Shown here in pieces: positions 12,962 through 64,000 of a DNA stretch of 64,000 nucleotides. Made by a program: the position numbers and the translations under genes. The DNA is from Balanoglossus misakiensis (lineage: Eukaryota > Animalia > Hemichordata), in contig CM082597.2 in assembly GCA_040954595.2 (NCBI GenBank), forward strand, positions 5,027,244 through 5,091,243. The letters run 5' to 3'. A model generated the notes under the pieces. It searched no databases. It saw only the letters and a program-made list of their open reading frames with translations, and was not told the origin of the DNA. The stretch's first letter is position 1. Each line of letters opens with the position of its first letter.

Positions 12962-12997
<36 letters not shown>

Positions 12998-13717
12998 ACC
13001 ACCACAATCAGCTAAATCACCACCACATTCAGTGTCATGTCGCTGCCGCTGCTAATTACGATCACACATTCTATTCTGCTTGCGTTTCATTTAACAAGAG
13101 TAAGATAACACTGAAAATATCCAAGATCAGATATGTGTTTTACACTTTCTTCAAACATTCTTTTTTTACGTACTTTGCATACTTCTCCTGCCGTACAATT
13201 TTCTACTGTTGTGTTCTCATTGGCTGAAAGACAGTCACTGTTGGCGTCCCCTAAACAGTCATAACATTGCAAGGCTTGTGTAGTCGCTGAAAGAAATAGA
13301 AGCATAACATTGGTGTATTAGCTTCAGTTTCTCACACGAATTTTACCACTAATGGCATAATACGGTGCATGCGTTTGTGTCTTCGTCGGGGGGGGGAGGG
13401 GGTGCATTCTGTTTAAGAAAAAAAATTACCTAGAATTTTCATCTAAAATGAACAAAGGTCGATAACTCAGAACATATGCAAATCTTTAAGAAAATGTTCA
13501 CATGCAACAGAGCAGGGGTTTAACAAATATCTAACAATAGATCATTTTTAGTATACATGTACATGGGTTGATCTTTTGAAGTTGGTCCACAGCAACCGTT
13601 TAAAATATGACAGGTAACTTCTGGGGTAAAACTCTATATAATTAGAACTTTGTTGCATACGAATCAGTACTTACCATAGAGCAGACACACGGCGAAAACG
13701 AACAACAAATACTTCAT
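12094..13717 (-). CDS. Single-domain Ly6/uPAR three-finger protein, predicted GPI-anchored
   Basis: Exons 13717-13675 (MKYLLFVFAVCLLY), 13286-13174 (TTQALQCYDCLGDANSDCLSANENTTVENCTAGEVCK), 12901-12808 (TKRSYLASAFILVQRECSSSCSAGDGRFWGT), 12218-12094 (DIIGCCNTDNCNDADFSGVSLTTSSIIVVCVSLMAAIATV*). Ten Cys, CCxxxxCN motif, hydrophobic C-terminal tail; all splice phases consistent. Confidence 0.93.
12690..12775. mobile_element. ~90-bp piggyBac-like MITE family B, degenerate copy
   Basis: CCTTTCACCC...GGTCCAACCTTACCATAG...TTTGGACTGAACCATGGCGGCGAAAGGGG; homologous to 18233-18318. Confidence 0.75.
12924..13005. repeat. (ATC)n-(AAC)n microsatellite
   Basis: Directly visible. Confidence 0.95.
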
Positions 13718-39768: not shown

Positions 39769-42700
39769 TTAATTGAGATGCTTTCTGCACTTCTTGGAAC
39801 CGCAAGAACAAGGAATCTTTTCTTCTTCAAATGGAAATTTGTAATCATATGTCAGTTCTTCTCCAGGCATAATCTTGCGACTGGCAAAGATGACGATGTG
39901 TTTCTTTCCATCGACTTGAATCACACGGGAGAAACAGTTTGGCTGAAATAAGGAGAAATAATCAGTTTGTCACTGGTTTCTGATAACATGCTTCAAAACA
40001 TTGAATCACAACTCTATTTTTTGTTTTGGGTAAGTAACTCAGTTAATACCTGTACAAAACTCACTTACAGCTATGTCTGAAATAATAGCTGTGACAAAAT
40101 TTATCAAAAAGATGAAAGAAAAACATAGAGTTTCATCAACCACTGGCTTGCCCAAAATACAATTTCAATGTGGACTTACTTCACACGAATGGTTGATGAA
40201 TCGAGCAGCATTTCCATGCATGGTCGCATCCACAACATCGTAGTCATCAATACGGAACATGTAACAGCCAATACCCTGTAAATTGAAAGACATATAACCA
40301 TGACTGTAGTACATAAATTGCATACAATGTGGTTGAAAAAAAATGCAGCCAGCAGTTTGAATGATATTGGTCTAGGCATGATAGGTAAAAGCTACTTATA
40401 AACGGACACATGCACACAGATCACCCACCTTACTGTCATAGTATTTTTCTCTCTTATCTGTGAGTACTGATCTGATGACCATACCACTGTACTCAATCAC
40501 CATCTCACCAGCATCAATGGGACGCTTACAGAACAAACCTCGACCATGAATTCTCGACCTACAATGCAAATATCAAAGTATTTTTTAAAGGAACGTGCCG
40601 ATTTGTGCAAATTTTTGAGAAATTGCCATTCAGAATTCCTCAAACCACCACGAGGTATGCAATTGTGTAATGTAACACGCTAACCATCAGTTTCTGCCTT
40701 AGAAACCTGAATTTTGCGTAAGTTCAGCTGCCTGACTGGTAAAAGTAACTTTTATACCTAAATTCCATATTTCATGGATTTTGGTGATACAACAGATCTA
40801 GTTCACACATGCCCATATATGATATGATTAACAGGGATTATGTCCAAGTCTTCTAACACCCATGCTGGTAGTATTATGTTCAAATATCCATAAATTAAAT
40901 AAATAAGTGACAATGCAATTGTCATTTTTGAGTGCCACAATCTGGTCTGTTAAATCCACAAACCTATAGACGCCAACAGCTTCCCTGGACGTCCTTTCCA
41001 GATGGCGGAATCTCATGGCCATCGGTAAATCCATACTGGTAGCTCTCCTGTCGAGGAATGAACACCAGAGATATGTCAACATTGAATATTCCAGATTTTT
41101 TGTATTATTTGCTGCATACGAGAGCCATACATCTTAAATGATGCACCATTTTCAGTTTGCCTCGTTCCATAATGTTTACTGTATTTGAATGTGAAAATAT
41201 GCACCAGGCTTTTGTGAAGAAACCAATTATCCAAATCATACGGCAAAGGCCTCAGTAATAGCTGGGTAGGCACATCTCCTTCACACATTTGACCATTAAG
41301 AACATTAGTATTTTGAAAAATTCTATAGTGTCTTTTTGAGTGTACATGATAAACAACCACTCCTTCCTTCTGTAATTAATGGAAATCCCTGAATAAAACA
41401 TTTCTGTATACACTGACTGAAGATCAGTCAGTGATAATCTTCAGTCAGTGATACATATGTAGGGACAATGCATGCACAATTTCCACATTGTATCAATCTG
41501 TGAAGACACAGGGGGGTACAGTGCATCAACCCTTGATGGTGGATCTCACAGTGGACCAATCCATATTGACACGGGGGTGCCCATACCTCGCTGACTTGTG
41601 TTGTATTTCTTCTTCTTCGTCCAAGTTATCGGTATGGATTGCCAGCTTGCGATGCTTGGACGCCAGGAAGTTGAACATGTCGAACTTGGATCGTCTGGTG
41701 TAACATTCTGTCCTGGCACAGCCGTGAGGATTTATTGGTGGTTCCTACATGGACCAATAAAACAATGCACAGTTTAACATTTTGTGTACAGAACATCTGG
41801 TGTGGTATAATATGAGCTATGGGATTTGTTTTGATAGTAACTTTCTTATGCCTTTGTTTATTGAGCAAAAGAGGTCTATTGGTATTAAAGATCCAATAAC
41901 TCCAACTTTGGGCCATTTTCTAAACGCACCAAAAAATAAAGAGTTAATATTTTGTGTACAGCACATCTGGTGTGGTCACATACGCTATGGGATTTGTTTT
42001 GATACAGTTAAACCTGTGTTAGTGGCCACCTCTATCTAGTGGCCACTTTGTTCCGGTTCCTGCGCAATAACATGTACATTAATTGACCTGTCTATAAACA
42101 TCAGTTTAGGAAAGTCCCTTGACCGGCCACTATAGATAGGTTTGACATTAGTAACTTTCTTATGCCTTTGTTTATTGAGCAAAAAAGGTCTATTGGTGTT
42201 AAAGATCCAATAAATCCAACTTCTATCCAGAGTATAACAAGAAACAGGACTTAAAATACGGGGAGAAAAAATAGTTAAAAAAAAAAAGTTCCTAGGACAA
42301 ATTTAACATGACAAAATTCCCCTCACCTCGTCAATGAAGTCCTGGGATGACTCATATTGATGAAATTTGAATTTGTATTTGCGGCAGTTTTTTGCTCCAT
42401 ACAACTGTTCCAGCAGATAAACCACAGCATCATGGGTAACACCAATCATGCGTAGCCCATCGACACCTGTAAAGGTCAAAGTTCAAAGGTCAAGAAGCAA
42501 GTAATATCATTTCTGTTAATGACAAATTGTCGTACTACTAAACATTTGACAAAAAGCCATGCCACTAACTGAATATCATATTTTGCCTTATACTTAAATA
42601 AGTAACTATACTTGATTTGATATCCATTCTCTGAATGAAAAATGTCCAGCAATAAAAAGGATCTGCCCCATAGCCAAATAGAGACACTAACCTGCAAAGG

Positions 42701-45700
42701 ATAAATACTTCATCCCTTGGCTATTCCGTGTTTCTTGAACTTTCTCCAGAACCTTCTGCCAGGCCTCTGTGTAAAATTGCAATGGAGATAAGGCAATGTT
42801 AAAGTTGAGTGTGACTGACATCAATTCATGTGGCCCTGGTCACCTCTTCACAAATTGTTGAAGACTGACAATTTCGTGTGTACAAACATTACTTGTCTGC
42901 AGAGTGTAGTTTTTCTTCAACTCTTTATAGTTTGCTTGTACGTGGTGATCATTAAAGGTATAGTCACCTCCAATTTACACACGCCCATATTTGGCTGAAA
43001 AGGCGTATTTGAGTTCTCTAAAGAACATATGGTGGCACCCTTTTTTTGCATGTGCCACCCACTGAAAATCTGTGATTGGCTATATCTCAATTCGCCATGG
43101 TAACTATAGATAATTTTCCATAGGTGAACGTATATCTTGAACTTGACAACATACTCGGGTTGGCGATTATACCTGTTATTGTGTCAGCTTCTGTATGAAA
43201 ACCATCATCACTGGTGACTTCAAACACAAGATGAGGCTCATCTTTATTTTTCGGCGATTCCTTCTGTTTTCTCTTCTCCTCCTGTTCCATCATCTTCATC
43301 AGGAAAGACCCGGCTTGGTCATCGTCTTCATCATCATTCTCCTTGTCTTCCTCCATGAATCTGGTCAGATCAATGTAAGATTCTCTTCGCCTGTGTTTGG
43401 GCTTCAGTCTTTTCGGTTTGGTTGGAGCGCCCTCTACAAGATTTGAGTGAAGCAACAATTGGTGAATGGAAATTTTTAAGAATACTACACCAAAATATTA
43501 CCCAACAACAAGGCATAGCTGTCAGTTGGATTTTCATAATGCTTATTTCTTTCGACCCATACTGAAATGGTTCACCTGAAAACAGAAAACTGTGGCACAA
43601 TTTGAAATTTAAACTGAAAACATCAAGATCAAACCAATATATGGTGATGATGGTTTAATCAATAGTCTCGATTCATGTTTCATCCTTTACCGCGACTTAA
43701 TTTTACTTCGAGACTGACTCACCTTCTGTACACGTACTGTCATCACTCTTTGCTTGCAGCTTCTCTTTCCTCTTTCTCTTCTTCCTTCCTTTTGCCACCT
43801 CCGCCCCGCTCTCACTGGTCGACTGATCCTTCATCATCGGAGGCTCTCGCAGAAGACTGTACACGGAGAGATCTGCGTTCTTCAGCCTTTCCTCCACTGC
43901 CTTCTCCCAGCTGGAGTTGGCCGGATTGAACGTCGGAGGAGCGAATTCATCCGACTGGAATGTTGGGTGCTTCATGCGCGGACGATTTGATGCAGACGAA
44001 GATCCAGGGTTCTTAATCCTTGGTTTGGGTTTTGTCTGTGATGGTCCTGGAGTGGCTTTGTTAACACTCTCTTCTATGCTGGGCTCGCTCTCCTCGCGAG
44101 TTGTCAGGTCACGGCAAACGGCTCCAGGCATGACCATATTGGCGCCCATCCAGACACTATGGCTCCTCTGGTTGGTTTTGGGACTTTTCGTCTTCCTGGC
44201 ACGCTTGGCTGCAGGCTGCTGTCTTCTCTTCTTGACTGGTGGGGTTCCGAAAAGCTTGGCCGACACCAGGTCCAAGTCGATCGCCGACTGCGTCACCAGA
44301 GCCTGGTGAAGAGAGGCCAGTTCCGCCGGTGACAGATTACTCAGGCTGTCCAGCCCAGCAGCAGACAGGATGCTCGTCAGCTGCGTGATCTGGTCTGGCT
44401 TGGCTGGTCGCCTCCCACCCAAACTTGCAGGGATCTCTTGAGGCGTGGTCTGCGGTTTTCCGTCCACAGCAGCAACGGTCGCGGTGTTGCTTTGAAAGCC
44501 GGTGAACTGCTGCGTCGCACTTGTTTGAGGCAGCGGGGGAAGCAAGGACGCCGGCGACAAGAACGTGCCGTGCAGCTGATTCTGCTGGACGATCGACCGG
44601 AGGGCAGCTGACGCCCCGAGGCCGCTAGAAGTGGTAACAGACACTTTGGCTAAGTCTGCCGAGTACTGAAGATTCTGCTGCGCTAAGAGGCTGTTCAGCC
44701 CAGTGTTTTGCACAGAAGGAGAAATCTGCCGTAAACCAACGCCCACAAGGTTTGGAACAGCTGTCTGTGCAGTCTGTGATGTAATCATAGTAGGGTTCGT
44801 ACTGTGCTCCTGGGCCGTGTTGCATCTGAAGGACATCATTGCTTGCCTAGCAGCATCACTCAAACCAATACTGCTGGTGTTTTTGGCAATCTGGTGTTCG
44901 TCTGTCAAACCTGTGCCTGCCATCACTGGAACGCTGTTGGTTGGCATAGTGCATGACGTAAGGGAATTAGAAGTTCCAGTTGTCAACATCCCATTGGCAG
45001 CCAGTAGCTGAGATGTTGTGGTAATGGTACTTGGTATCGAAGAAAACTGGACAGAATGCTTTGCAGTCGCGTGTGGATCCTGAGTAAGAGAAACCTGTGC
45101 AATGGTGACAGAGTTTGGAATGCTTGTGAGGTTCGAAACGGTGCCCGGAATGGTCAGGTAGGCAGACGTTACTGGCGACTTATTGCGGAGGATGTTGGGC
45201 GTGGTTTGTGCCCTAGAAACGGTTGCCGTAGGCTGCATGACTTTCAAGAGATCCTGCCACACTTCCTGTGTGATTGCATCGGCAGTTGGCATCTTGTGTG
45301 TACTTTTCTGAGGCGACAGGCCCTGAATTAATTGTTCTAGAGTAGGGTTTGTCATTGGAAGCCCTGCTTGGTTCTGCTGTATGACGTTTCCTTTGATGGT
45401 TAGTGCATTGCTGTGAGGTGCATTATTGCCAGCTAACTGCTGTTGAGTGAGGAACTCTGAATTCAAGCCAGGCTGTAGAAGAATGTCAGACACCACATTC
45501 TGTTTCCCGCTTGTAGAGTACAGGTTTGCTGCCATGTCCTGAATCAAGTTGAAGTTCGGGGTCCCCTGTACCTGGACCTGCATTCCACCTGGTACTTGAG
45601 TTATTGGATTGATTGATAGCGATGACTTAGATGTGTTATATTGTTGGGGTAACTGTGCCCCTACTGTGTTAACACCCTGTCCCATGTTCGTCTGTAAATT

Positions 45701-48700
45701 ATTCTGCACAATCAACGGTGCTCCAAAATCCGTGCTTTGAAACACTGTGTTTCCAAAACTGTTGCTGCTTGTTGGTGTAGATTGTAGGAATGATTTGATT
45801 GGGCTGTAGACAGAGTTTTGAGGAACTGTCGGGGACTGTTTCAGGGGACTTATATTAGCAGTGCCTGGTACATTCGAATTGGTAATGTGTGCTGACACGA
45901 TGGGTTTCTGACTGGACGATGTGGGCACAACTGGAGGCTGGAATCCGCCGAAGCTGATGGAATTATGAACCGGGGGCATTCCTGGAATGTTGAGTGTCTG
46001 CACCTGACTGCAGGGCTGCGGAACCAGGTTCGCGCATCCCTGCGACTGGAGTGAAAGTCCTGTCCCTTTGCCGAGCGCATACGTTGAGTTGATATGCAAC
46101 TGTGGCTGTAACTGCTGCTGTACCACAGTGGCTGAATTGTGGCTTTTCATGTCAACGATCACTTTGACGGGACTTTGTTGCACTGTGTGGGTTTGGGATA
46201 CACTAGGCAACTGCTGGCCCACCAAGAGGGTATCCTCGACTGGTGTCGGAGTGTCTTGATTGTTATACAACAATACAGGAACTCCTTTGTTGTTGACTAC
46301 CATGTATGGGGTCGCTTGAGGGTTAATGACGGGTACATTTTGGACCTCGATGCTCCCGACACCATCGTTAACCCTGGTGGTGATCTTCTGTGGCGTTCGG
46401 TTCTCTGCAGGTATACCCTTGTTGACAACAGATGAATTATCTCGGATATTGACCGCTCGGGGTACGTTAGCCGCCTGCACTGCATTGGCTGCCATGATGA
46501 CCATCTGCTGTTGAGGATTACTAACCACACTCATCATAACTTGTCGGTCTTGTTTGTCCTGTCCTGGGCTGGGGTCGGAGGCTCTCTTTGGCAAAATGGC
46601 CACCGGTGGTTGGGGTGATTTCATGCGGTTAGGGCCTGAGGATCTGGTGGGACTGACTGAGTTGGGTACTCCAATCACGGTGGACGGATCAATGAGCGCC
46701 TGGCTCTGCTGCAGCTGTGCTTGGTTCTGAGAGTGTTGTTGATAGTTTGCCACTGGCTGTGGCTGAGGAATCCCTTGTAGCAGTTGCTGTGGTTGGTAGC
46801 CTTGCTTCTGGAGCTGCACAGGATGTTGCTGCAGTATAGCCAAGGCCTGTTGGTGCTGAAGCAGCTCGGCTGTCATGTCCCGCTGCTGTGCAACGGAAAA
46901 GGTCGGCTGCACTACCTGCTGTTTAACCTCAACTGCCTGTGTGTGCATCTGCGACTTCTGCAAAACGTTTGCCTTCTGCGACGCATTACCCTGCAGTGTC
47001 TGTTGATGTACAGTGATGATTTTCTGCTGCTGGGGAAAACTCGTATCTCTCTGCTGCGCGAATGGACTCAGTTTAGGCTGGTGCAGTTTTGATGCCTGTT
47101 GCTTCTGTGATGAACTAGCTCCAGGCTGCTGAGACTCCTTCTCTGCTGACGAAGACCCTGGCAGCTTGCTCTGCTCTTGCTGATCGTGCTTCACAGATTC
47201 TTGCCACGCTTGCCCTGCAGGTTTCTTCTTATCTCCTTGCGTTTTGTTTCCTTGATTGTAGACATTTATCTCCTTCTGCAAAGTATGTTCAATTAGATCA
47301 CCCATGCTGAAAGTATACCCTGCCGATGAGGTATTGGTCATGGCAGTGCTAACTACAATTCCTTTCGGAAGTGCAGCTGTCTTGCTGCTTCCGTCTGGTA
47401 AAGTAATCACTACAACATGTTGGTCGCCGATTTTTGACAGCTTACCATGTACAAAGTAAGAAGATGGCTTTGATTTGCTCTCTGAGCTATTCTTTGGTGG
47501 GTTATCTTTAGGGGTCGTAACTGGTGTGGTTTCCCGTAGGAGCTCACTCAAAGAGAGATCTTCATGAGCTTTGGGTGTTTTAACAGAGCCCCCCTGAACT
47601 GGATCACCAGATCTCAATTCTACTGAGGGGGTGGGTGGCTTATTGGGGATAGTTTTATTCTCTGGTTTGCCTTTGGGAGATGTCGTTGGAAACTCGTCTT
47701 TTTGGTGACAGGTCTTCTCCTCCGGAGAAGTGGTGTATTGTGTTGGCAATACCTTCTCTGGACTTAGCAACAGTGACTGAAGTTTTAAACCAACGGGAAC
47801 ATGGTCAACTGGTGATGTTGGAGGCTCTGGCATTGATGATGGTGACCTTGAGGGAGTCTTCAAGCCTGTCTCCGCCTTTTCATCAGAAAGTCCCTTTGGG
47901 GTTACAGACCTGACATCACGCATGGAATTTTCCTTCACAGCATCATTAGCACATATCTTGTCCGGCCGAGATTTGTCCGATTCAGTGGGGTTCTCTGTAT
48001 TTTTACTTGTGGATGCTGCAGATTCTTCCTCTCCTGCTGCTGGAGGTGAATCTTGCCCCGCATTCTTCAACTCATCACACTTGTTCAAAACCACCACAGG
48101 GTTCAACTCCTTGATGGCAGCAATCTTGGCCATGTCATTTGTCAGGAAGACACCATCAGACTGTGCCTTATCCACAGAACTACTATCTTGAGAACCACCA
48201 ACAGAATTGTCTTGCGAACCACTCGGATCTAGAGAAGATCTTCTTGACTTGACTTGAGAAACACCCTGATCTACAGATCCTCTTCTTGGTTTCTCGTTAT
48301 GGTCACTCAGATCAACAGACGCCTTTCTTGACTTTTCTTGAGAACCGCTTAAATCCACAGATGTTCTTCTCCTTGATCTGCCATTTCTCACTTCCTCTAT
48401 CCTTTTCTCCTCATTGATATTACTTTTCTCACAGGCACTACTCCGCCTGCTTCGAGTCCTTGTCTGTACTTGTCCATCATTCTTCCTACAACTAACACGA
48501 CCTTCTTCACATTCCTCACTCCTCTCGCTGCTTTCTTGACCCACTAAACTCTCATCTGCCCTCTCCTCCTCCTCTGTTATCCTTTCATGAACAATACTGT
48601 CAGCACTTCCAAAACTTTTCTTTCTGCCTCTCTTCTGGGTAGGTGAGACCATCTCCTCCTTGCCCGGAGACTTATTGGGTTTGGGCAGCGTCGGAGTTCC

Positions 48701-51700
48701 ATAATCCACAATCCTCATTAACCTGGTCTTGGTGCTCCTCATTGGGTACCTCTTCTTTCCATGAACACTGACATCGATGATATCCAAATCTTTCTCAAAT
48801 TTATCATCTTTGCCGTCCTTTCTTCTCTCCTCTGAACACAGCCGCTGGTGTTTGGTAAAGTGTCCTTTCAGTTTGTACCCTTTCCCACAGTAGTGACAAA
48901 GAAACGAGGGACACTGAAATTCCTCTGCCTGCTCATCCTCTTCATCCCTGCTTGGTTGCTTAGCAACTTTATCTGCATCATTACTTGTGCATTCATTCTT
49001 CTCTTCTGAAACCTTGTGACTCTCTTCTGCACCAACCCTTTCCTCAGAGTAACTTTCACTGCTTGCTTTTGCTTCATCGGTGGTGTCTTCTTTGTCGGGG
49101 TGACGGGTTGCCATACTAATGCTGTCACTTTCTACATCTTCGCCTAAGCTACCACTCACTCCATCATCTAAAGAGCCCTCTTCATTGTCATGCTTAACTG
49201 CCTCATCAGTAGGAAGTTTCTCGGTCTCAGAAATCATACTGTCACCGTCTTTTCGATCTACAAGCTCACGCAGTTCATTTTCTGTTGGAGAGTCATCCTG
49301 GCTTTCTTTGAGTTCTTCACCTGTACCTTCTGCGGCAGGTGGTGCCAACATTAGTAGTGAATCCTGCTGACTAACGTCGCTACTCTGTTGGACATTATCA
49401 CTCGTTTCATCTTGCAATAGAGATTTTATGATTGGCAGTGATTCTTCAGAAACTGTAGTCCCATCCACAGCTTTACCAACTGATAAGCCTGATTGACTCT
49501 CAACAGACCCAGTGCCACACTCCATTTCACCTTGATCTAGGGTGCCTGGCACATTGTCTACATTTGGTCCTGTAACTATATTGCTCGTATCTGGCGTTGG
49601 TGAGTTGGAACCACCGGCTTCACGAATTCCTGAAACACTGCTTGCAGTTGCAATCTCACTGGATCTTAAAATTGCGTCCGAATCTGAACGCTTATCTTTA
49701 TGTTGTAAATCTTTTATTTGATCAACAGGTAAGGTACTGCCATCGGTCACAGCAGCACTGAAATACTCAAGTGCCCCTTCTGGGTTTCCTTGAATATTTC
49801 CATCATTTGAAACCTGACAGGCTGGTGCTGAATCTGACGAATTTGGTGTTTCAATTTCATTTGCTGCCACTTCAGTCGTACTACACTCTGATGTACTAAC
49901 GACAGATGTAATGGGTTCTTGAACAAGTACGCCAACTTCTTCAGTGGGTTCTTGAACAAGTGCGCCAACTTCTTCAGTGGTTTCTTGAACCAGTGTGCTT
50001 ACTTCTTGAGTTAGGATGACTTCCATAGTCTCTTCAGTGCCAATGGGTTCTTGACCAAGTGTGCTGACTTCTTCAATGGGTTCTTGAACAAGTGCACCGA
50101 CTTCCTCGTGAGTTAAGATGGTTTCTATAGTCTCTTCAGTGCCATCTTCATTCTTTCCATTGCCATGCATCACACTGCTTTCTACCTCCTCTAGTTCTTG
50201 CTCAATCTCTGCGATCTGAAGTGCCGAGTTTTCATCTACAGGTGGGATGGAGCCAGATGTTGACGCTGTGGTGGATCCGGCCACTGGAATGGAATTAGCG
50301 ACGGAGAGATTGTCCGAGTTAAGAGCCATCAACTCCAGGGCTGAATCTGATAACTGAAGATCTGAGTCTGCAATGTCAAGCACTAGTCCCGACTCTTCAT
50401 TGTGGTCCAGATTTTCCGGGTCTGTATCCAGAATTTCACAGTTTTCCTGGAATTCGGTCTTTCCCTCCTGTTGAAGGCTTTCTATCGGCATGAACTCGTT
50501 CTGATCCGGGATCGCAAGGGAGTTGCTGTCACCAGTGATTTCCGTGGAAACTAATTTGCCAGAAGCGTCACCGGAAAAGTTAATCTCCTTGGCACACTTT
50601 GCCTTACCCGCACCAGTATTGAGTCGCTCAGCAATCATCCCTAGCGTCCTGGGTGACGCCGTGTAATTCGGAGACGCTGTCACGTCAATGCCCGACTTGC
50701 TGGACAAACTCTTTATCCTTGCTGCGGGTAGCATCTTGAGTGTGCTTGGTGCCAGACCAGCCACAGAGTCCGTACTCACTGGACCTGATTTGTCTATGAT
50801 CACACCGTCCGTGCTCTGGGTCGGATTAGAGTCTGTTTCCCCCAGTATCAGATTCTGACTCGCTGTGATATCATTAGACTCACTATCAGCCTGCGTCAAG
50901 TACTCTGTTGCCAAAGCAACCGCATCATCCACTTCCATGATAAACTCCCCCTGCCTCTCAGATTCCATCTCCACGTTCGGAGGCAATTCCATGATCCCGG
51001 TCACTCCATCCGCAGCCACGCATCCTGCTCCCGCGTCAATCGGCAAATCATCCGTGGGCGAAGGGTTACTCTCGTGCGGAATGGTGTAATTGATGTCGTC
51101 GATGCCGCTTGGCAAAGTCGCATTGTGAACGACGGTCCGATTCATGTCCTGGATCTGAGTCACCGGTTTCAACGGTTTGTACTCTTTGATTGAAATGGTG
51201 TAAATGCAACGTCTTCTGGTGTCCACAGTACTCCAGTACACACGAGTCACTCTGCAAAATACAAGAAATAATGATCAATAACCAGGTATCATTATGGCAT
51301 CTTTCTGTTAAATCATGAAAGTGAGCATTTTTCATTCAGAAAGATAAAGCAGCATGTCTTGTATGGGTAAGTTTCTATATAATGAAATAATTTTTTCACA
51401 ATAACACTTACACCTTAATGTATGCAAATCATAATCTTATGAAAGAATTAAATCTATCTATACTTAAACAATTAACAACACTATATAAACTAAATCTTAG
51501 AAATACAGTCAAACCTGTGTTAGTGACCAACTCTATATAGTGACCACCTCTATAGTCCCTGTGCAACTTACATGTGCATTAATTGACCTGTCTATAAAAT
51601 CCACCTGTCTATGAAGGCCAGTTTATAAAAGTCCCTGGACTGGCCTCTATACACAGGTTTGACTGTACATCAAACTACTAGAAACCTTACACTCAAGATA

Positions 51701-54700
51701 TGCTATTTTATATTAAAATATTCATGATATTCGGAAGTATAAAAGATAGTCACTTACTTGAAGTCAATTGGAAACAAGGCAGCTTTGGTATCTGATAAAG
51801 AGGACAACACACCAAGATATTCGACAGTCATGGCACCTGAAATGTATGAAGTAAACAACATTAAGTCAACTGTGTGATTCATTTTCTATAAACATAATAT
51901 CTTCAAATATATCAAGTATGGAAATTATCAGTAAAACTATAATAAGATGACATTGTCTTTCATATACTGATAGTATATTTACCTTTTCAGAACTGACCAA
52001 TAAACCCTAAAACATACACAAATATACAACTGTGCAAAACTTTCTCAGCTCCAGGCTTATAAATAAATGTGAAAGACATATTTCAACGTGAGTATCGCTG
52101 ACAAAACACTCACCTGTGAGAACATTGATACTTCTGGGGTCCCATCCTTTGACGAGTTCTTTCTTTAGTTTCATACCTTCCATGTTGACACAGACTCGAC
52201 GTTTCACTGCAAAGTTATCATCATCTACAAGCTGTGCGCGACAAGAACGATACAAATTTAGACAAAAGAATAAAGAACAGAGATGTATATTTGATAGAGT
52301 CAAATTGAACAGAGTTTGGAAAAAAGCAACAATGTGATGAATGTGTTTCCATGATTTATGGCCACAAAATACAACTAACTCTCCCTTTTTCATAAAAACA
52401 TTTATTGATCACCTGTAGAATCTAATAATCAGTATTTAGTTTATCAATCTATCACAAGCCATTGATGAAGATAAAAATCACTGTGTCCCTGAGTCAAAAT
52501 ACCTGGTTGAATTAAGCGCCTATGATAGGTCTGCTAGTATGCAGATTTCCTAGAAACAGGCAAATGTGCCCACTGTAATAATCATTGGGAGACCCACACA
52601 GAGACTTTGATTTTCTCACCTCATGATCTACTTTGTTTCGATGGGCGTAACAGAACACTTTCTTATCCTCTTGGAAGACTGCAAGTTCTGTTCTAGCACA
52701 CATGAAGTGAAAGTTGGCCGGACAACCTCGCATACAGCAGCCAACAGTGGCACCAAATCGGTTGCAGTGCTCACAGCGCTGTCAATGGGTAAGAAAAATT
52801 CAGTCAGTTTATATTAGAAGATGGAGAAACGAGGGCTTGTAGGACATGGTTTTAGTGAGATGAAATTGGTGATGATTTAAATGTGCATATCATGTCATTT
52901 TTAGTAAATTTTGATGAGAAAGTACCACAAAATGCAAGTTGATGCGAAATGAATAAAATTATTACAAAATTAACACAGGAATGCTTCATTAACTCTGAAT
53001 ATAGGGACATGTGCACAAAGATATCAATCATATTAGGACCAGGAATACTATGTACACTAATTTGAAAATGTATGATAGAACTCACGATGATAGTAGATGT
53101 AAAACTTGACAAACATCACTTAGAATGGTACAGAAAGCTAACATATGGGATGAAGTACTCCCAACATGGCTAATGATATTTGAAGTAAGAACCACAACTC
53201 AAAAACTCTAAATTCTCACCATCTGTCGCCCTCTGGTTACTGCTGGGTGAACATTGATCAGTGACCCATCGACCTCCTCGAAGACCTCGGCTGACCACAA
53301 GGCACAGTTGATGTGGATCCATTCATCTTGTCCGCAATACAAGAGTCGACCTGCATCCTGTAAGGCAAATATGAAGCAAATGGTACATGAAGCAATCAGA
53401 CACCAGGCCATAGTTTTACCATATGTGATTCTGGGGAAAAAGTCCCTAGCTGGGAAAATCTCCTGCATATTTCTAGAAGAACATATCCAAACGAAACTAA
53501 GTAACTAAGAAATCAGTTCAGTTTGCACGTTTCCAGTTCATAGAGGCTCTTTTTATTGCTGTCCTATGTGGGAAAAATTTGGACTAGGTTTCCAGATTGG
53601 TCAGAGTTTGGTTTTGACAGGCTTCACTGTACAATATTTAACCAACAGGGATCCAAATTCAGACATGGCCACTGGACAGGGCCACTCTACAGTCTAATTC
53701 TCTGCACTTACATTAGGTTCATCATCCCCAAAATGTCCACAGAGGCAGCACCTTCTAGTGTCTTCACCTGCTGTATCCATTGGCAGGTCAAACACACCAT
53801 CTGATCAGAGTGAAACAACATGCATTTTAGTTTGAAAGTCTCATAAAAGGATAATATGAACTTCTGTCGGGTTTACCAAATGGCCTGAGTCTATTGTTCC
53901 CTTGGCCTTGGTGGGAAGACAACTTTTAAACAAGCTTGTAAGGTTTGAGAAAGGAACTTCTATATTGCCATGGTAAAAGCTAATTTAATACTCAGAAACT
54001 GAGTAGACTACATTTGGATGTACATGTACACATATCCAAGATGATGCCATAGTAACAAAACCAAAGTAACATTTCTTACCATCTGGCATTAATTTATTTG
54101 GTGTTGGTGGTAATTTTTTCAGCGGTGATGGCTGTGGTGTTGTCGGGTCCGTAGGGTACTTCTCCCTCCACTGTGCATATTCATGATCTGGATGCGGTGG
54201 TAACACTGCATTTGGCAACATGCCACTGTAAAATCATACGTAGAAAAGTCAGTTTCTAGAAGTTGTTGCATTAAATACAAATATGTGTATTCTCAATTCT
54301 TCTCATTAATTATAGTTAAAAGTAAATTATTTCTCACTCAGAAGTTAAAATTAAAGCAAAACTGTAGTTTTCTTTGATTTTAAAGCTCAACTTTAGTTTC
54401 AGTATAATTCTTCATTTTATACCTTTATAAACCCATACAAGGTTATACTGAAAGAAAAAACATTAATCCCCAAAAGTCATATACCAGAGTTGAATACTGA
54501 AAATCAGATACATGTTCACTTCACAATATTCAGATGTCAGAGGGGTTTAACTGTTAGTTTTACATGGCGCCTGCAACAGCCAGCTGGAAGTCTGGAAGTG
54601 TATCAATCTATTCCGGTTGGAACTTACTCTGGAAGATTCTTGTTGTGTTCCCAGAAAGAAGATGCATGTACACTGAACCAAGGGAATACTTTTTCCATTT

Positions 54701-57700
54701 GCTGGAAAAGAAGGAAAAGAAAGTGAATTGAAATCTTGAAGTGAGACTTGTTTTGCTTTACACATCTCTCTATCAATAAATCGACACACTTGGAGTAATT
54801 CTTCAATCTTCACAAGATAAAATCCAAGCATAACAATAATGCAAACTACCAAAATTCTTCAGAAAGATGTGTTTGCGGAGTGACCATTTGTACAATACTA
54901 ACCCTAATGAAGATGTTCTTGGCAACCCTATTCATCCTCTTGAGGGAGCTGTTCTCATCTTTTTCACTGGATATAGATTCCTGGATTATTCTGACGATGT
55001 CATCATTGAAACCAGACTGTAAGGAAAAGGGTAAAGTGGCAATTGTGTTATGTTTGAGAACTGACTTCTTTTCTTTGGTGGAATGTTTTTATTCATAAGA
55101 CTGGACACAGGGAAAATGAAAAAGAATCTAGACTTCAGAGTACTCAAATCTGCAATTAATTTTTTACACTAATTATTCCTTGGAAGATATGCCATTTCTA
55201 GAAAACACACAACATTTGAAATCCCGCTGACAAAAGACTATTTCTGTGGAACAGTTTAATATTAAATGCCACCCCACAACTATAGTGCCACAGAGATATA
55301 ATTTTTGACAAATGACATACTTTGCAATTCTAGAATATTCTACAATTGCATGACACAAGAAGTACACTAGCAAATTCCATATCAACTCACCACAGATATG
55401 TACTTTCCCTCATTCATTCTGTCTCTCATATCCAGCAGTCCATCTGCGTGGTCCTTCTTTGGTGGTCCTATCAGAGATATCCTGCCGATCGTCAACCCTT
55501 TCCGACGACAGATAATGCGTCCGGCACTTTCATCGGATCTTTCGAGCCTGGCTGTTACCTCTGACGTCTCAGAGGGGGCAGAGTCTGTGCTTTCCGAAGT
55601 CCTGTTGTCCGGTTCCGGGAACAGAGACTCTAACCTCAAAAGACTATCGGACGTGTCAAACTCTAAATTGTCTATTTCTGACTCTTTGGCTGGTTCGTCA
55701 GCCAGAGGGTCAGCCGGTCCCTGATTGGTCACCTCGACGTCACCGAGACTCTCCTGAGGGGTTTCCGTCTCTTTGGTATCTTCGCCCTGAGTTGCTGGTT
55801 CGCAGCACTGAATCTGATTGGCCAACTGCTCGCTTGCTGGCTCCTCATTGGTCACGTCATGTACTTCATTTGCATTTTGAACCTGTTCTATGGTATCGTC
55901 CACTGCCATTGGTTGTTCACGCTGAATTTCTGCCAAAGCTTTGCTGAATGGGCTTACAGTCCTGTCTTTTTCAACTTTCTCACTTCTTGACAATCTCTCG
56001 CTTTTGGGGGAATCTTTCAAATCCTCTTTCTGAAATGGAATCACATGATGTATGTAAATATTATTCCGAGTTATATATTGGTCTTAGTGCTGAAATATGA
56101 TAAAAAGTAACCTAACATTGTTTGCCATGATGTACATTCCCTACAGTTTCCCTCAAAGACTTTGTGACTTGAATGTGCCAATGAATACTGTCAACAGCAC
56201 TTCAGTGCCAGTAGTAGAAACACATTGCCTTTAGGAAATACATGTAGCTACCCATAAATGATAATTCCACCCACCTATGTGCTAATGCCTGTTTTATTAT
56301 AAAATCGGAAAATACTTAACTGCCGTAAGAGCCACTGACACAGACAACAAACAAGACTTCCAAAGCAACATCTATCTTAACATTGTTGCTTTTGGTATCA
56401 AGGAATTTTTCCTTTTCCCTGTTGCAAGATACTAGTCATACCTTATCTCTCTTCCGGAACAGTTGCTCAATACTCTTAGTAGCCAAGAGCTGTCCTAGGA
56501 CAAGTTGGAATCCCGCCTGCATTTCTTCCTTGATGTCAATCTGCCACTGTGCCGGCTTTTCCGGTTTGCACCTGGAACAGGTGTAATGGATATCTTCCGG
56601 CAGCTCACACATAATCTGGTACATTTCGTCTTGAGATAGAATAAAAGTGTGGTTGAGTGAACAGTTCTGGGTGATGTTTCAATGTGTTGTGACTGAATAA
56701 ATTGGTAATGGTTGACACACTTATGAATTTCTGTTACTTACCGACCTATAGAAAAATCATACAGAATAAGGGACTTACCTGTAAGACCCTCACATTTAGA
56801 ATGTACCCAACTCTCACAGGATGCACACTGCATCATTTTCGATTCATAATCATCGTCCGTGTAGCACTGTTGGCATAGAGGGCAGTAGTTACCTGTCACG
56901 ACAAAAAAGAGAGAAAATGCAACGACATTAAAATACTGGCAAAAGCTTAGTACACTGATAGTCTATCATAGTACAGACTTAGAAATGTATTAACACATGC
57001 TCTGGGGCTTTTGAAATGCTGGCATAAATTCTAGTGTGACAAATGTGTTAGGGAAATGCCAGCATTTAATGAACAGCCTTGTACATTGTATTGTCGCGAA
57101 TATTGTTTTCACATCATAGTGTTTTTCTATGCTATCAAATTACATGTCAGAATAAATAAACACTTTGGTTATCCATAAACAGTGCAATAAAGCAAATCTG
57201 TCTTGATATATGTTGTTACAAATCTGTTACGTTGAATGTTACAAACCTTTGTCAAATAGTTTCCCACAATCCTGACAAAGTGAAAAGTCATGTGACCACT
57301 GAGCGTTGAATGACTGGCCAGGGGTCGTTGCTCCACAGCTCTTGCACCGAACACATTTCGTGCAGATCTGAGAGAAAGATTAGAAACAAGTCAAAAAGAA
57401 GTTCAAGCAAGTCTTCTCTCCAAGAAAGATTGTCAGTCCAATTCTCTGAATATAATGATAAATCAACTTGCATTTTATGAGTTTCAATCACAGATCTCCC
57501 AAACGAATCCATGATTCACATATAAAGTAAGTCTGTACACACAACCACAAGAACAAATCCGCAAATCCACCCCCCCCCCCTTCCAAAAAAAGTTCATCCT
57601 CGCCATTGAAAACATGTGAAATGACGTGAGCATTTTTTAGCCCGTTCACCCCAAGTTCCCACTTCACAGGTTCCACCTGGCCATAGACAACAATGGATTT

Positions 57701-60700
57701 GGACCAAACCATGGCGATGAAAGGGCATAGGAGAGTAAAATAGCATACTCACCCAGACTTTCTTCCTCTTAGTTGGTTTGGTTGGATAATTTGGACCTAG
57801 ACATTCAGCATGGTACGTATGGTGGCACTTATCACACTGGAGTAACTGTTAAATGCACAAACATACAACAAAGACAAATTATTAAGAGCAAGTAAGGGAA
57901 CCAAAGCACATGACATCCATACGTGTCTCTATCCAAAATTTCCTCTGTGGGCGTTTTAAAGGCAGACAATCGTTTTATACGCATGTGCATAATTTCGTGT
58001 ACAAACATTATGTCCAATTCAAATCTTCCGCAAATTTTGCATTTTACAAATTCAAATAGTCGTCTGCCTTCGCTTCCTTCCATATTTCATGCACACCGTA
58101 TGTTGGCATCTAATGGGGCTTTAATACTCCCATGAATGATTAATAATCTCTCCCCTCTCCCTCACACACACACACCCTCCCCTCCCCCCACCATACTTAC
58201 ATTCTGTTGCCTGCCACAGACATGACAGAATTTACATCTGCGACAACACCAAGTATCCGAGTGACCTTCCAATGGCTTCTCGTCGTCTTCCAGACAGAAT
58301 TCATGGAATGGTTCACAACACACGTTGCAATACACCAACTGGAACCAAAACAGATAATAACAGGTATACAATCAAGCAGTGTTTTTGTTAAGGTCGGTGC
58401 CCAGGTAAATATTACCAGGGTTGATAATACTGCCCGTACAGCACTGGGTCAGGGAACCTGACTATTTAACCCTAACGCTGCCAAGTCAGTTGAAACTGGT
58501 TTGATTTCCAGGGAGCCTAGAATCCTGGCTCCCAGGCCTGTTAGGCTGCCAAGTGTGTGTTAATCAGTAGGGCGTATACTGAGACCCTCAGACCAATACA
58601 GTACAAACCAGTGCAATTTGGTATATTTTACAGGGGGCTCAGACTGCCAAGTGTGTCTAGGTCTTTATGAGAGCCATGTCAAGACAGTAAAAATACGTTT
58701 TAGAAGAAAAATACGTATTTTAAGGGACTTGACACTCTAAACAGGTATGACACCCAGTAGCATTAGGGATACAGACAACAAGCATAATTCACCTACCTCG
58801 TGCTTGCCAGTACTAGCACAAAGGAAACACACTGTCCTTGTTACCAGAGGCATGGTCGATATGATTGGCATCCCATAATCCCACACACTCTCCACCTCGT
58901 AGTCTTCTTGCTGCATGGGAAGGGTTCAAGTCAAGACAATCATGTATCGTGGTAAAAATATAATAAAACATTTTAGAACCATATCTTTCAGCTGATTTTG
59001 GAGTGCTTTTTCTGAGACTGTTATGGGTCAAAAATTAATATCTCCAACATGCAGGTGACATCATTTTAAGGGGCACGGGTCCCCTGTTGCTAGGGGGTAA
59101 ACCAATAGGGTTTCATGTTTCTTATACCCCCTGTAAGCATTATCTACTCTCGTCAGTGATTGGTTACCTTGTACTCTATCCTGATGAGATTGCCATTGGT
59201 TATAACCGGAGCTGTCTTTGGTCTGGCAGCCACTGAACTGCCAGGCACTGCTGAGACACTGCTGTTGGGTCTCTCCTGAAGAATAAACACATGCATAGGT
59301 AAGCAATGTTCACCGAATTAAATAGTTGTGCCACCTAGGCATGTGAAAATAATGACTGAATTTCAAGATGGCAGACTACTGCTATGTTTTATAATTTTTT
59401 ACCAGACAATATAAGGTGAATGCATTTTGCTAGTTGTATACAATGACACAACTCAATGCCATAAACCTTTTTTTGAAATACTAATAATTTCATGAATTGT
59501 TCAGTGATTTCAAATTCGAGGATTTTTTCTGTGATTTTCAAACTTTAGAGTAATAGCAATAATTCTCTTTCAATGCACGTACCTCTTTCTTCCTTTTCTG
59601 CAGTTTGCTAGGGGGTACTCTTTCCCTCTTTGGTCTTGGTGCTTTGGGTACTACATAACATAAATTGAGTAACATAATCGTTTTAAGGTAGATGGAATGT
59701 GATAACCACACACTGCATCTGGGTAGTCACCTACCTTAAAAACATGCAGCAAATTTGGAAAATTTGAAAGCTTTTGCAGAAAACTTGCACGGGTCTAATA
59801 ACTTTGAAAAATATAGTATAAAGGCTATAAAGTATCTAGCCAATGTTTATATATAATATTTATAATGCAAGGCATACAAAACTTGCAAATAGTTGTGATT
59901 AGTTTCATCATAACACGATATAAATATTGCAAATGGTATATTCTTACCAATTTCAGGTGCTCCAAGTGCTGGTATTGGGGCCTTACACTTCTTATGGCTA
60001 AAACAAAATGGTTGGAGAGTCATTACATGTGAAATTGAAAAAAAGGCAGTGAGAGAGAGACTTTGTCCCTTTATTTGTCTATCACTATTATCAGCATACG
60101 ACCTAGAATTCACTTAGGTAATCAATTCATTTACATAAATATGATTATAACACATGTTAAAATTATATATTTATATACAGCAATAAAACAGATAATTCAA
60201 AAACAAAGAAACTGAATATGACTGAGTTTTGTGTGATGACAGTATCATATAAAGTCTAATGGTAATATGTTATAGATATAAAACAAATTCTGCATATAAT
60301 GTTATAATTCTGACAAAATTATAAATGCTGTAAGTACTATCTCTTTACAAGTGACATGAAACATTATGTCACGTATATAATGTCAAGTATATATAACACA
60401 TAATCAGGGTTCTCCCCAGGAAAAAATCATAGCGTCGGGGCTAATTTGCATGCTAATTTGCATATTAATTAACATAAAAATTACATATAGCATAAGCTTC
60501 TATTTGACATCACTGTGCCCCCCCCCCCAATTATGTCGTCTGCTATACAAGTATTCTGCAGATTTGTGGACGCATAGCATGACCTCCAACAAAAGTTGCT
60601 ACATCTTTTGACAAGTTTAGATAAGGTGTTGCAAAATGCGTACGCTCACTTGTTGCCATCTGTGCGTGCGTGCGTGTTACTAGGGCTATGATGCTATTTA

Positions 60701-63700
60701 TAGGACGCCTGTCTGAAGATAACTGGTGCACTGAATGAAATGGGCAGCGTACTGCTCTTGAGAGCGTGCAGAGCTGCATTGCTTCTAGGGTGATTAAAGC
60801 CGTGATTAACACCGTGAAAGGTGTGAAATGACTCCGTTGTGTTCACTATTCATCAAGAATTGAAAGGAAGTAGCAAGTTATAGTAAAAACAAAGGCGGAC
60901 GTAAGGCAAAAATACGGAGTTGACAATAACATGTTAGCGTAGCGGGCAGACATAATAGCGTCGGGGGGAAAGCCATAGCGTCGGGGCCGTTAGTGATAGC
61001 GTCGGGGCCCCCGACGCTGTTTGGGCCTGGGGAGAACCCTGATAATGTAAAAGCTGCAAGTACCCAGTGAAGGGGACAGGTGAATTAATACCATTAAAAC
61101 ATTTAGATTACAAATGAAGTGTATTAATCAGAGAAAAAGGAATCCACTTATCATACTGTTAGTGTTAGTGGAACAGAGAAGGGTATATACCCTTTCTGTC
61201 ATAATCATGGACTAATCTGCCACTATTGTCTATGATTGGGTTATTCCATGTTTGTTAGAAAGGGGTGATAAGGTCACAATTGGATAGCAAGAGAAATGAA
61301 AAGTGTTTTTCAGTGAAATTAGGATATTTGACTTCTTGCCATTCTGGGGCCAACTGACTTACATGCAACACTGACGTTTGATGTTTGGTCCGCCATATTT
61401 CGTTTTGTCGCTGCAAAATAAAGGCAGGGAGTTTGTTTATTAATTTTGAGAATAGCAAGTTCTCAACTTACATGCAACACTGTTTTTTGACATTTGGTCC
61501 ACCATACTTAGTTTTATCGCTGTGAAGAAAATAAAATAGATAGATAGATAGTTTGTTTCACCAGAAAGATGCATTTGACATAACTGGTGCGGACCAGGGA
61601 AGTAGTTCTAGTGGAACTAGTCATGTCCCTGGCCCTAAATACATATAAATCATTGAAACAAATAATGCAATTGCCATACACAATTGCATAAACAATTTAA
61701 AATGGGTGTTGTGATGGCCTGTGATCCGAGAAACTTTCTCTTAGTGGTAGGGGTCAAAATGATCAGATTCAGCAAATGTAGAATATAGATCAGTAAGTGT
61801 CGAATGTACAGTCAAACCTGTCTGTAGTGGCCAGTCAAAGAACATTCCTAAACTGGCCTTTATAGACAGGTGGCCTTTATATACAGGTCAATTAATGTAC
61901 ATGTAAATTGCATAGGTACTGTAACAAAGTGGCCACTATATAGAGGTGGCCACTAACACAGGTTTGACTGTGCATGTAACAAATTACTGGATTTAGAATA
62001 GATGAGAACAGCAAATGTATATTATTTGCTCGACATTTTGCTGACTCAGCATCCTGTGTACTCACAGACAGTATTCACACTTGCGACAATCCGCAACGCG
62101 TTGACATCCCTCGCATTCTCCGCACCGCCGTCTCCTCTTCCGGGGCTTGGCTGGAGTGTCTTCCTTGGGAACTGTCTTGGTCTCCCTCTTGGGAATCGTC
62201 TTGTTCTCCTTCTTGGGAGAGAGTTGGGGTGTCTCGTCGTCACTCACAACAGGCTCTGTGACAAAACGGCAGGGAAAATGTTGGTGCTTGATTATAGCGA
62301 TCTGAGAAACCACTTGAAAGTGAATTTGTTACAGTACGCAATCAACTGACATACATGCAAGCCTTTGATGAAAAATCAGCAATGAAAATGAGAAGACAGA
62401 TATAAACTTTGACTAAACCCATGTCAACATTTTACTTATCCATTACATTTTTGAAATTTATTTTATTTAAATTTTATTTCTGTTTGCAGTGGAACAAGAA
62501 AATCGCCTTTGGTACACAGAACACAAATACTGAAATTAAAACGCAAAGTTATAGCTAATGTCCCCTTTTAATGGCCACAACCAATTCTGTGCAGCTCAAA
62601 CCATTTTCCTTGTAACACTGCAAATCCTCACACTTACTTTCCTCTTTCTTTTCTCTCAGTTTCTCCTTCTCTCGTTCCGGCAAGGCACTTAGTCTGAGTT
62701 CATGGTTGTCGTCTCCAAAAAGCGCCCTGGACTGCCCCAACACGACCGCAGCTCTGCGGCAGACATGTTTGATCCGAGGCCCCCTAGTTGAGTTGCTACT
62801 CGTAGTGCTGACGTTGTCCGACGTATCTGCGTCATCATCCTGTATGGGCTATAACAATTTGAGACAAAACGTGCACATCATTTGGTGTCTTATCACCCCC
62901 GTATCAATCTGACAGTGGAACAATCTCAATCCCCTCACGCGAGACAGATATGAAAGTCCAAATACTGCAATTTTTAGTGGGAAAACAACATCACAGCACA
63001 ACAAATCTTTAGGACGTTTTATAAACTATTGAAAACTTACACTCTCTCTGGTAGGCTGGTTTTCCTTCACTTCAGGCTGTGACATGTTTGCTGAAAAACG
63101 AAGAGATATAGAATACTTATTATTATTATATCAAATCACCTTCATGAAATTACATACGTACATTGTAAGTTGTAAATTACAACTTGACTAGCAACTGAAT
63201 CATGACAATCTTATAAGTCATTTCCTTTAATCAGGTTTAACTGTAATAACATTATGAAATTCTGTCTTCCTGTTTTCAAGAATCATCCATCCTTGAAAAA
63301 TAAGCTTAAAGGTATATGGTCACCTCCAATTTAGATACGCCCATATTTGGCTGAAGTGGCGTATTGTAGCGTTCTAAAGAACAAATAGTTGCGCTCTTTT
63401 TTTCGCGTGTGCCACCCACTGAAAATCTGTGATTGGTTAGATTTCAATTCGCCATGATAACTATAGCTAATTTTCCATAGGTGACCGTATACCTTTAACC
63501 CTTTCACCACCATGGTTTGGTCCAAATGATGACTCACCTGTTTGTAGAAACTCTGGCGATTCTGTATGGGTGGCCTGTGTTGCATTGTCGCTGCTGTTCA
63601 TATCGACCAGCGACTCCAGATTGACGACCGGGAACGACTTGAGATCCACCGGGCTGTGAACCCTCTTCTGCTCCATCTCCAGCTGCATGTTCAGTTTCAC

Positions 63701-64000
63701 CAGCTGGTCCTTCTTGACGGCCTCCGCCTGCTTCACGGCCTTGCTCAGCGCGGCCTTGTGCAGCTGCAGCTTGGCCTTCTTGACGAGCTCCGAGGGCCTG
63801 CGCGAGCCGGGCTTGCCTCCTTTCTTCGCGACCGCGGCTGTCTTCGACCTCGAACTTGCTTCAGTGGCAGCATCGTCGTCCGCTTTCGGTTTGCGGTCTC
63901 GCCCGAGCAGCTTGGCGACCGACGACTTGAGCAGCACTTTCCGCTTGGATCGCCTCTCCGGAGTCACGACTTGACTGCTGCTCGCCGGACGTTCGACCGG
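39769..64000 (-). CDS. KMT2A: Histone H3K4 methyltransferase MLL/trithorax (KMT2A/KMT2B co-ortholog); 5' end lies off-window
   Basis: Ordered domains: [13 protein letters not shown] (62839-62638); CXXC (62255-62066, 61519-61472 or 61410-61363, 59997-59948); PHD1-3 (~58914-56441, e.g. [31 protein letters not shown]); bromodomain-region exons (~56030-54627); ePHD (53800-52620, [15 protein letters not shown]); FYRN (~51836-51150); giant exon 51251-43723; FYRC (43433-42327); Win motif GCARTE (41744-41587); SET (41047-40964, 40558-40429, 40275-40180 [12 protein letters not shown], 39942-39769 ELTYDYKF plus post-[16 protein letters not shown]). Confidence 0.97.
42005..42146. mobile_element. Tc1/mariner-type MITE family C
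   Basis: TA-CAGTTAAACCTGTGTTAGTGGCCACCTC...TAGGTTTGAC; homologous to 51506-51665 and 61809-61970. Confidence 0.8.
42956..43137. mobile_element. TTAA/AGGTAT MITE family D (Kolobok/T2-type), degenerate copy
   Basis: Homologous throughout to 63310-63494. Confidence 0.8.
51506..51665. mobile_element. Tc1/mariner-type MITE family C
   Basis: TA-CAGTCAAACCTGTGT...ACACAGGTTTGACTG-TA, perfect TIR and TSD. Confidence 0.9.
57640..57726. mobile_element. MITE family B copy
   Basis: CCCGTTCACCCCAAGTTCCC...TTTGGACCAAACCATGGCGATGAAAGGG. Confidence 0.75.
58470..58768. mobile_element. piggyBac-like non-autonomous element
   Basis: TTAA-CCCTAACGCTGC...GTAGCATTAGGG imperfect TIRs; right TSD degenerate; internal CTGCCAAGT repeats. 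Confidence 0.6.
60036..60070. mobile_element. Solo terminal fragment of MITE family A
   Basis: GGCAGTGAGAGAGAGACTTTGTCCCTTTA matches the right end of 730-1075. Confidence 0.75.
60405..61041. mobile_element. Non-autonomous DNA transposon, 16-bp perfect TIR, 5-bp TSD (hAT5-like)
   Basis: ATAAT-CAGGGTTCTCCCCAGG...CCTGGGGAGAACCCTG-ATAAT; subterminal TAGCGTCGGGG repeats at both ends. Confidence 0.85.
61363..61410 (-). CDS. KMT2A: KMT2 CXXC alternative exon B ([15 protein letters not shown])
   Basis: 48 nt, tattttgcag acceptor, gtaagt donor, phase 2-2. Confidence 0.85.
61472..61519 (-). CDS. KMT2A: KMT2 CXXC alternative exon A ([15 protein letters not shown])
   Basis: 48 nt, ttcttcacag acceptor, gtaagt donor, phase 2-2. 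Confidence 0.85.
61809..61970. mobile_element. Tc1/mariner-type MITE family C, inverted relative to 51506
   Basis: TA-CAGTCAAACCTGTC...CACAGGTTTGACTG. Confidence 0.85.
63310..63494. mobile_element. TTAA/AGGTAT MITE family D (Kolobok/T2-type)
   Basis: TTAA-AGGTATATGGTCACC...GGTGACCGTATACCT-TTAA. Confidence 0.88.

Follow-up and report, generated by a model that had tools for sequence, protein, structure and literature searches.

A conserved and apparently recurrent tandem exon pair encodes the CpG-reading loop of a KMT2A/B-type histone methyltransferase

The E12 and E47 products of TCF3 differ in dimerization and DNA binding. They carry homologous alternative exons in the bHLH DNA-binding domain, and the gene is listed as a human tandem-duplication substitution (PMC8373072). 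A comparable arrangement is found in FoxP/FOXP1 (exons 16 and 16b in mouse, isoforms A and B in Drosophila), where a tandem exon lies within the DNA-binding domain, one copy is used per transcript, and the copies differ at base-contacting positions (PMC3002244, PMC8989529). Exons 4a and 4b of OGDH are kept exclusive by a donor-to-branch-point distance below 50 nt (PMC7969005), and enforcement by a spacing of this kind applies to 57 of 629 human clusters of mutually exclusive exons (PMC5740500). Tandem exon duplications are a common class, and some of them are recurrent (PMC3342872).

The CXXC domain ties MLL1 and MLL2 to unmethylated CpG. Wiedemann-Steiner variants concentrate in it (PMC9249231), and MLL leukemia fusions need it (PMC3072069). 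In MLL1, the cytosines are bound by the backbone carbonyls of residues 1185 and 1186, and the guanines by the K1186 and Q1187 side chains (PMC4642587). R200 of CFP1 takes the role of K1186 and hydrogen bonds to the CpG guanine, and the Q201A change abolishes binding (PMC3072069). The KFGG motif has a structural role, and type-1 CpG binders are defined by either KQ or RQ (PMC3685328). C1189 of MLL1 is a zinc ligand, and the C1189A change unfolds the domain (PMC9249231, from which the MLL1 residue numbers used here are taken).

A KMT2A/B-type (MLL1/2, trithorax) gene occupies positions 39769..64000 on the minus strand of the window, the 64,000-nt stretch of Balanoglossus misakiensis DNA analyzed here, and its 5' end lies beyond the window. 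It was recognized from Pfam matches (zf-CXXC, PHD, zf-HC5HC2H and SET), tblastn and the open frame. The domain order (CXXC, PHD fingers, extended PHD, FYRN, FYRC, SET, post-SET) and the nearest named proteins, which are KMT2A/B orthologues, bear out the MLL/trithorax identity given in a first-pass annotation of this DNA. The gene model, which was guided by tblastn with KMT2 proteins of Ptychodera flava, Saccoglossus and other animals, has 33 exons between the window edge and the SET-domain stop at 39769, and all 32 introns are GT..AG. Between the conserved N-terminal motif and FYRN, 83% of 969 aligned residues are identical in the protein of P. flava, the closest relative found, and the identity to the Saccoglossus kowalevskii protein is 68%. 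Amphioxus, echinoderm, bivalve and bat proteins are 47-56% identical, with amphioxus at 56% and bat KMT2A at 52%. On these figures the animal is likely an acorn worm nearer to Ptychodera. A single coding exon at 43738-51251 (7.5 kb, about 2500 codons) is 47% identical to P. flava in the part compared. The window gene is complete at its 3' end, reaching the SET stop, and the P. flava model ends at 2748 aa. In the precomputed domain annotation, neither the P. flava nor the Saccoglossus RefSeq model has a SET or FYRC family, and both look truncated.

At 0.51, the CpG observed/expected ratio of the KMT2 gene body (39769-63400) is below the 0.68 of the whole window, in keeping with gene-body methylation. 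A short, MITE-like inverted-repeat element is present in three copies (61804-61975, 51505-51670 and 42004-42146), all of them within KMT2 introns. The third copy is flanked by a duplicated stretch at about 42150-42230 and 41810-41900, which was considered as a second exon pair and rejected as an intronic duplication between FYRC-region exons. Minus-strand ORF pieces elsewhere in the window (about 1387-3500, 12700-13300 and 24174-26000) resemble what we take to be Ly6/three-finger exons and a histamine N-methyltransferase-like methyltransferase.

Exon A (61519-61472) and exon B (61410-61363) of this gene are adjacent homologous exons of equal length (48 nt) and phase (2/2) on the minus strand. 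Their splice sites are intact, each exon having a CAG acceptor and a GTAAGT donor, and a 61-nt intron (61411..61471, minus strand) separates them, all at the positions that the first-pass annotation had given. The upstream constitutive exon (62066..62255, minus strand, acceptor at 62255) encodes the first half of the CXXC domain with six cysteines (PF02008 positions 2-27) and ends in phase 2, and the downstream constitutive exon (59948..59997, minus strand) encodes the final zinc-ligand cysteine. Either copy does complete the domain, as had been proposed: with exon A or with exon B there are eight zinc-ligand cysteines at conserved spacing, the loop exon supplying the seventh (the C1189 equivalent), and an open frame of 4047 codons connects the window edge with the SET stop. 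The frame is also open with both exons (4063 codons) or with neither (4031 codons). At 61 nt, the A-B intron is shorter than each of the other 31, which measure 149-1365 nt. The longest of the modelled gene lies 3' of exon B (59998..61362, minus strand, 1365 nt) and contains a 637-bp non-coding element (60405-61041). The element has 16-bp terminal inverted repeats, is bordered on each side by a duplicated 5-bp ATTAT and occurs once in the window.

The two exons differ at nine of 48 nt, which comprise five synonymous codons, a GTC/ATC change (V/I) and an AAA/CGT change (K/R) in which all three bases are replaced. Six synonymous positions had been claimed earlier, and the purely synonymous codons number five. 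The accompanying suggestion of purifying selection on both copies stands, with pS = 0.58 and pN = 0.10 in a Nei-Gojobori-type count (Fisher p = 0.003) and the same residue split in P. flava. The flanks had been described as unrelated, which holds in part, as about 26 columns can still be aligned locally upstream of the acceptors. Both donors outrank 24 of the 30 other donors of the modelled gene, and the acceptors of A and B outrank 27 and 28 of the 30 other acceptors. A degenerate exon-plus-splice-site pattern has two matches in the window and none in 100 shuffles, and no third copy of the loop exon was found within the 64 kb.

Four KMT2A-like RefSeq isoforms of P. flava (X1-X4) were recovered by a PHD-exon search and a cluster look-up. 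X1 and X2 (XP_070548619.1 and XP_070548620.1, 2748 aa each) differ at three positions (1026 V/S, 1033 I/V and 1035 R/K), and X3 and X4 (XP_070548621.1 and XP_070548623.1, 2645 aa each) show the same three differences, all confined to the loop exon. Since these isoforms come from one assembly and differ only in the loop exon, two genomic copies are implied. RefSeq isoform models rest on transcript alignments. Each exon version is present in two of the four isoforms, and the alternative use proposed before is thereby supported at the level of annotation in the relative. All four of these computed models contain exactly one copy, and none joins both copies or misses the exon. An orthologous pair is already implicit in the automatic RefSeq annotation of P. 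flava, where it is unremarked. Exon A matches X2/X4 at 14 of 15 residues, and exon B matches X1/X3 at 14 of 15 and the one Saccoglossus model on record, which is B-type, at all 15. The V..KQ versus I..RQ split is common to the window species and P. flava. It is very likely that A and B are a real, used and mutually exclusive exon pair.

Pairing of this exon recurs in other animal groups, which the first-pass annotation had missed. Metagenome contigs were scanned for any AG-48 nt-GT exon of the KMT2 CXXC-loop type, and 13 loci were found; the pattern has no match in genome_contigs or viral_contigs. Two loci in bivalve-like KMT2 DNA, L002 and L010, have tandem exons encoding DKPKFGGPGLAKQAC and DKPKFGGPGVIKQCC with intervening introns of 55 and 56 nt, and they are 97% alike and therefore come from one species or close kin. 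Among 20 named proteins, Mya arenaria KMT2 is the best match to their flanking exons, with 65% for the upstream one. In L002 the neighbors of the pair can be spliced in frame to either copy, across flanking introns of 631 and 2112 nt. An identical 13-nt UG-rich stretch precedes both acceptors in L002 and L010 and spans the predicted branch point; it could be either a duplication remnant or a shared splicing element. A further candidate locus, L013, carries the tandem pair DMKKFGGPGTIKKAC and DKPKFGGAGVLKQCC at 392-439 and 510-557 as oriented, 70 nt apart, on a contig without a flanking exon. Its second exon differs from that of L002 at six of 48 bases. Its first copy has KK-Ala where others have KQ-Cys and is without the CpG-reading Gln, and it is predicted not to read CpG. 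The DMKKFGG start of this loop presumably recalls KDM2-type loops.

At the other 10 of the 13 loci there is a lone exon, which keeps these boundaries. A relaxed scan found no second copy at these ten, five of which show their upstream intron in full and several of which have limited flanks, and an ESM Atlas search with one of them (L007) returned generic PHD clusters only. Mollusc protein models give hints of unannotated exon pairs in bivalves: the Sinanodonta loop is one residue from the first exon of L002, the Mya loop is two residues from the second exons, and the Pinctada loop is without the Gln, like the first exon of L013. Vertebrate genes have a single loop in every isoform with a CXXC domain that is listed in three clusters (39 of 39). 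These are 11 of 11 for lizard KMT2B (among 14 members), 15 of 15 for skate and ray KMT2A (among the members listed, with 19 in the cluster) and 13 of 13 for mammal KMT2A (among 15 listed of 236). The names KMT2A, KMT2B and CXXC are absent from the supplements to two human catalogues (PMC8373072, PMC5740500), in which the TCF3 control is present. The earlier remark that the arrangement was not known from vertebrate KMT2A/B agrees with the isoforms and catalogues checked. Word-based protein searches with short fragments gave 13 candidates in one case and 1 in another, with no scoring match, which is weak evidence.

We consider it probable that a CpG-loop exon was duplicated in tandem and is spliced singly by virtue of a 61-nt intron that is too short for joint use, giving two full-length enzymes that are predicted to differ slightly in their affinity for unmethylated CpG or in dwell time on it. 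A symmetric phase 2/2 exon that carries the whole loop would be easily duplicated. The P. flava CXXC domain aligns without gaps to the human MLL1 and MLL2 structures (PDB 2KKF, 4NW3 and 4PZI), and in this alignment the loop exon spans MLL1 1175-1189, the V/I site is MLL1 1184, directly before 1185-KKQ-1187, and the K/R site is MLL1 1186. Exon A has the MLL1-like KKQ tripeptide, and exon B has an RQ like that of CFP1 and ray-finned-fish KMT2B. KYGG followed by KQ (A) or RQ (B) places both window loops in the type-1 ZF-CXXC class by motif. Among 173 CXXC loops, KYGG is present in further KMT2 loops, RQ is found in ray-finned-fish KMT2B and acorn worms, and KQ is found in KMT2A, tetrapod KMT2B, amphioxus and echinoderms. 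From this distribution, exon A likely retains the ancestral Lys, and the Arg of exon B is shared with Saccoglossus. The P. flava domain was also modelled with AlphaFold from a single sequence, and the poor result (pLDDT 65, pTM 0.42) was discarded.

Tuning would operate through a choice between Lys and Arg where the side chain reads a CpG guanine. Fine-tuning appears likelier than a specificity switch because KQ and RQ are both known CpG-binding types. The K/R change may have a small effect, since both motifs are type-1 and the residue has switched among single-copy orthologues, with TKRQ in ray-finned-fish KMT2B and TKKQ in lizard and human KMT2B (human KMT2A and KMT2B are both KQ). The chance that A and B differ measurably in binding seems to us slightly under even, and such a difference would more likely concern affinity than sequence choice. 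Altered flanking preference, which had also been raised, is doubtful: the CpGG preference of CFP1 is due to R213, further downstream and beyond the part that the exon encodes (PMC3072069).

These conservative changes are also what would be expected if the exons were mutually exclusive yet functionally equivalent, which we regard as possible but unlikely. A chance duplication would have left a short intron that forced a choice, the V/I and K/R changes would have been tolerated and fixed early, and purifying selection would act on both copies because each is used in some transcripts. K/R and V/I/T do vary freely among single-copy KMT2A/B loops, the MLL1 1177 position is T in both window copies and S and V in the P. 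flava copies, and tandem exon duplications occur in 7-17% of metazoan genes, many of them perhaps near-neutral (PMC3342872). However, equivalent exons would not readily explain why the V/K versus I/R split is conserved between two species whose proteins are 83% identical and whose disordered exon is 47% identical. The same exon is moreover paired in at least two animal groups, a recurrence that suggests selection, and the copies of the bivalve-like pairs differ by three and seven of 15 residues.

An exon tree (nine exons and 48 columns; three of the ten single-exon loci are included, and L010 and the other seven, most of them as near-copies, are omitted) groups window exons A and B with support of 99/99, and AU tests reject a clade of all first copies (p = 0.018) and a clade of all second copies (p = 0.003). 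The tree favors separate duplications, and gene conversion would yield the same tree. A single duplication that predates the protostome-deuterostome split, followed by gene conversion within lineages and many losses, could explain why the window gene and L002 are alike in the exon, the very short intron between the copies and the long intron after them, and why a 48-nt exon with the same boundaries is single-copy at 10 further loci. FoxP offers a precedent for a pair of bilaterian age (PMC3002244). We nevertheless hold such an origin to be quite unlikely, given the grouping of A with B, the rejected cross-group clades and the single loop found in amphioxus (8 of 8 isoforms), Antedon (3 of 3), Mizuhopecten (2 of 2) and Ostrea (2 of 2, these being the members with a CXXC domain out of 6). 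The duplication likely arose separately in acorn worms and bivalves.

Single inclusion in the preferred reading, in which two enzymes with slightly different loops are made, could follow from the geometry of the short intron. The two splice sites of the 61-nt intron would presumably not be engaged at once, and one exon per transcript would result in the window species. The only YTRAY branch-point candidate places its A at about 61440, 32 nt from the donor, and beyond 40 nt there is no A usable as a branch point. The predicted distance is below the 50 nt used as the steric limit for mutually exclusive exons (PMC5740500, PMC7969005), a limit of about 50 nt that derives from vertebrates. The corresponding introns of the four paired loci are 61, 55, 56 and 70 nt long, and the predicted donor-to-branch-point distances are 30 nt in L002, 31 nt in L010 and 27 or 39 nt in L013, where a further A, at 52 nt, is on the steric threshold. 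Points against a steric block are that introns of 60-70 nt are the fastest-spliced short class in Drosophila (PMC5762160) and that the acorn-worm minimum is judged from one gene whose other 31 introns are at least 149 nt. Steric exclusion between A and B is fairly likely on these predicted positions. A steric block would be needed because a 48-nt exon keeps the frame and NMD cannot clear double-inclusion or skipped transcripts; exclusion by frame shift and NMD was rejected for the same reason, 48 being divisible by three. A one-copy rule might also act at the protein level, as skipping would lose a zinc ligand and double inclusion would insert 16 residues between two ligands. No inverted repeat of the Dscam docking/selector type was found near the exons in the window, and local folding z values in three loci are -0.69, +0.44 and +2.06.

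If exclusivity were not strict, then transcripts that include both exons, skip them or retain the 61-nt intron would give a protein unable to bind DNA, and the pair would serve as an on/off control of CpG targeting. Double inclusion and skipping do keep the frame, and invertebrates can splice short introns (PMC5762160), but this is very unlikely because a doubled loop occurs in none of the four P. flava isoforms and nowhere among the 173 CXXC matches in the proteins compared, and each of the four has exactly one copy. That a pseudo-exon or an assembly artefact accounts for one copy is largely refuted and highly improbable, since P. flava has both copies with matching diagnostic residues, the A/B differences are mostly synonymous, and both exons have strong splice sites.

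The loop-exon pair of KMT2 is real and conserved, and it is apparently recurrent. More tentatively, the CXXC loop exon could be a repeated hotspot of tandem duplication across phyla and an invertebrate splicing dial on CpG reading by an H3K4 methyltransferase, which acorn worms would use for fine K/R adjustment and some molluscs, through a Gln-less copy, as an on/off switch. Naturally paired variants in one gene offer a clean test of how Lys and Arg compare in guanine reading, and the exon pair offers a handle on the targeting of trithorax to chromatin in invertebrates with mosaic methylation. If the pair is recurrent across phyla, then a chromatin enzyme joins the short list of convergent exon duplications. 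In the open literature we found no report of an exon pair in KMT2/trithorax or any CXXC protein and none of splicing control of a CXXC reading loop.

The window gene shares with FoxP a tandem exon in a DNA-binding domain, but FoxP acts as a sequence-specific transcription factor, its change in specificity is demonstrated and its pair has a single origin of bilaterian age (PMC3002244, PMC8989529), whereas the window gene encodes a histone H3K4 methyltransferase with a 16-codon exon, what reads as a conservative swap, and duplications that look recurrent. TCF3 likewise has homologous exons in its DNA-binding domain, but these encode 79 residues and are listed with a vertebrate origin (PMC8373072). 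The block in OGDH is the same as the one proposed for the splicing of the pair, although OGDH has distant branch points that were mapped experimentally and a longer intron (PMC7969005), in contrast to the predicted branch point and 61-nt intron of the window. [quoted passage not shown] In the vertebrate isoforms listed, KMT2A and KMT2B show one loop per gene, whereas in the window gene exon A gives the MLL1-type KQ and exon B the CFP1-type RQ.
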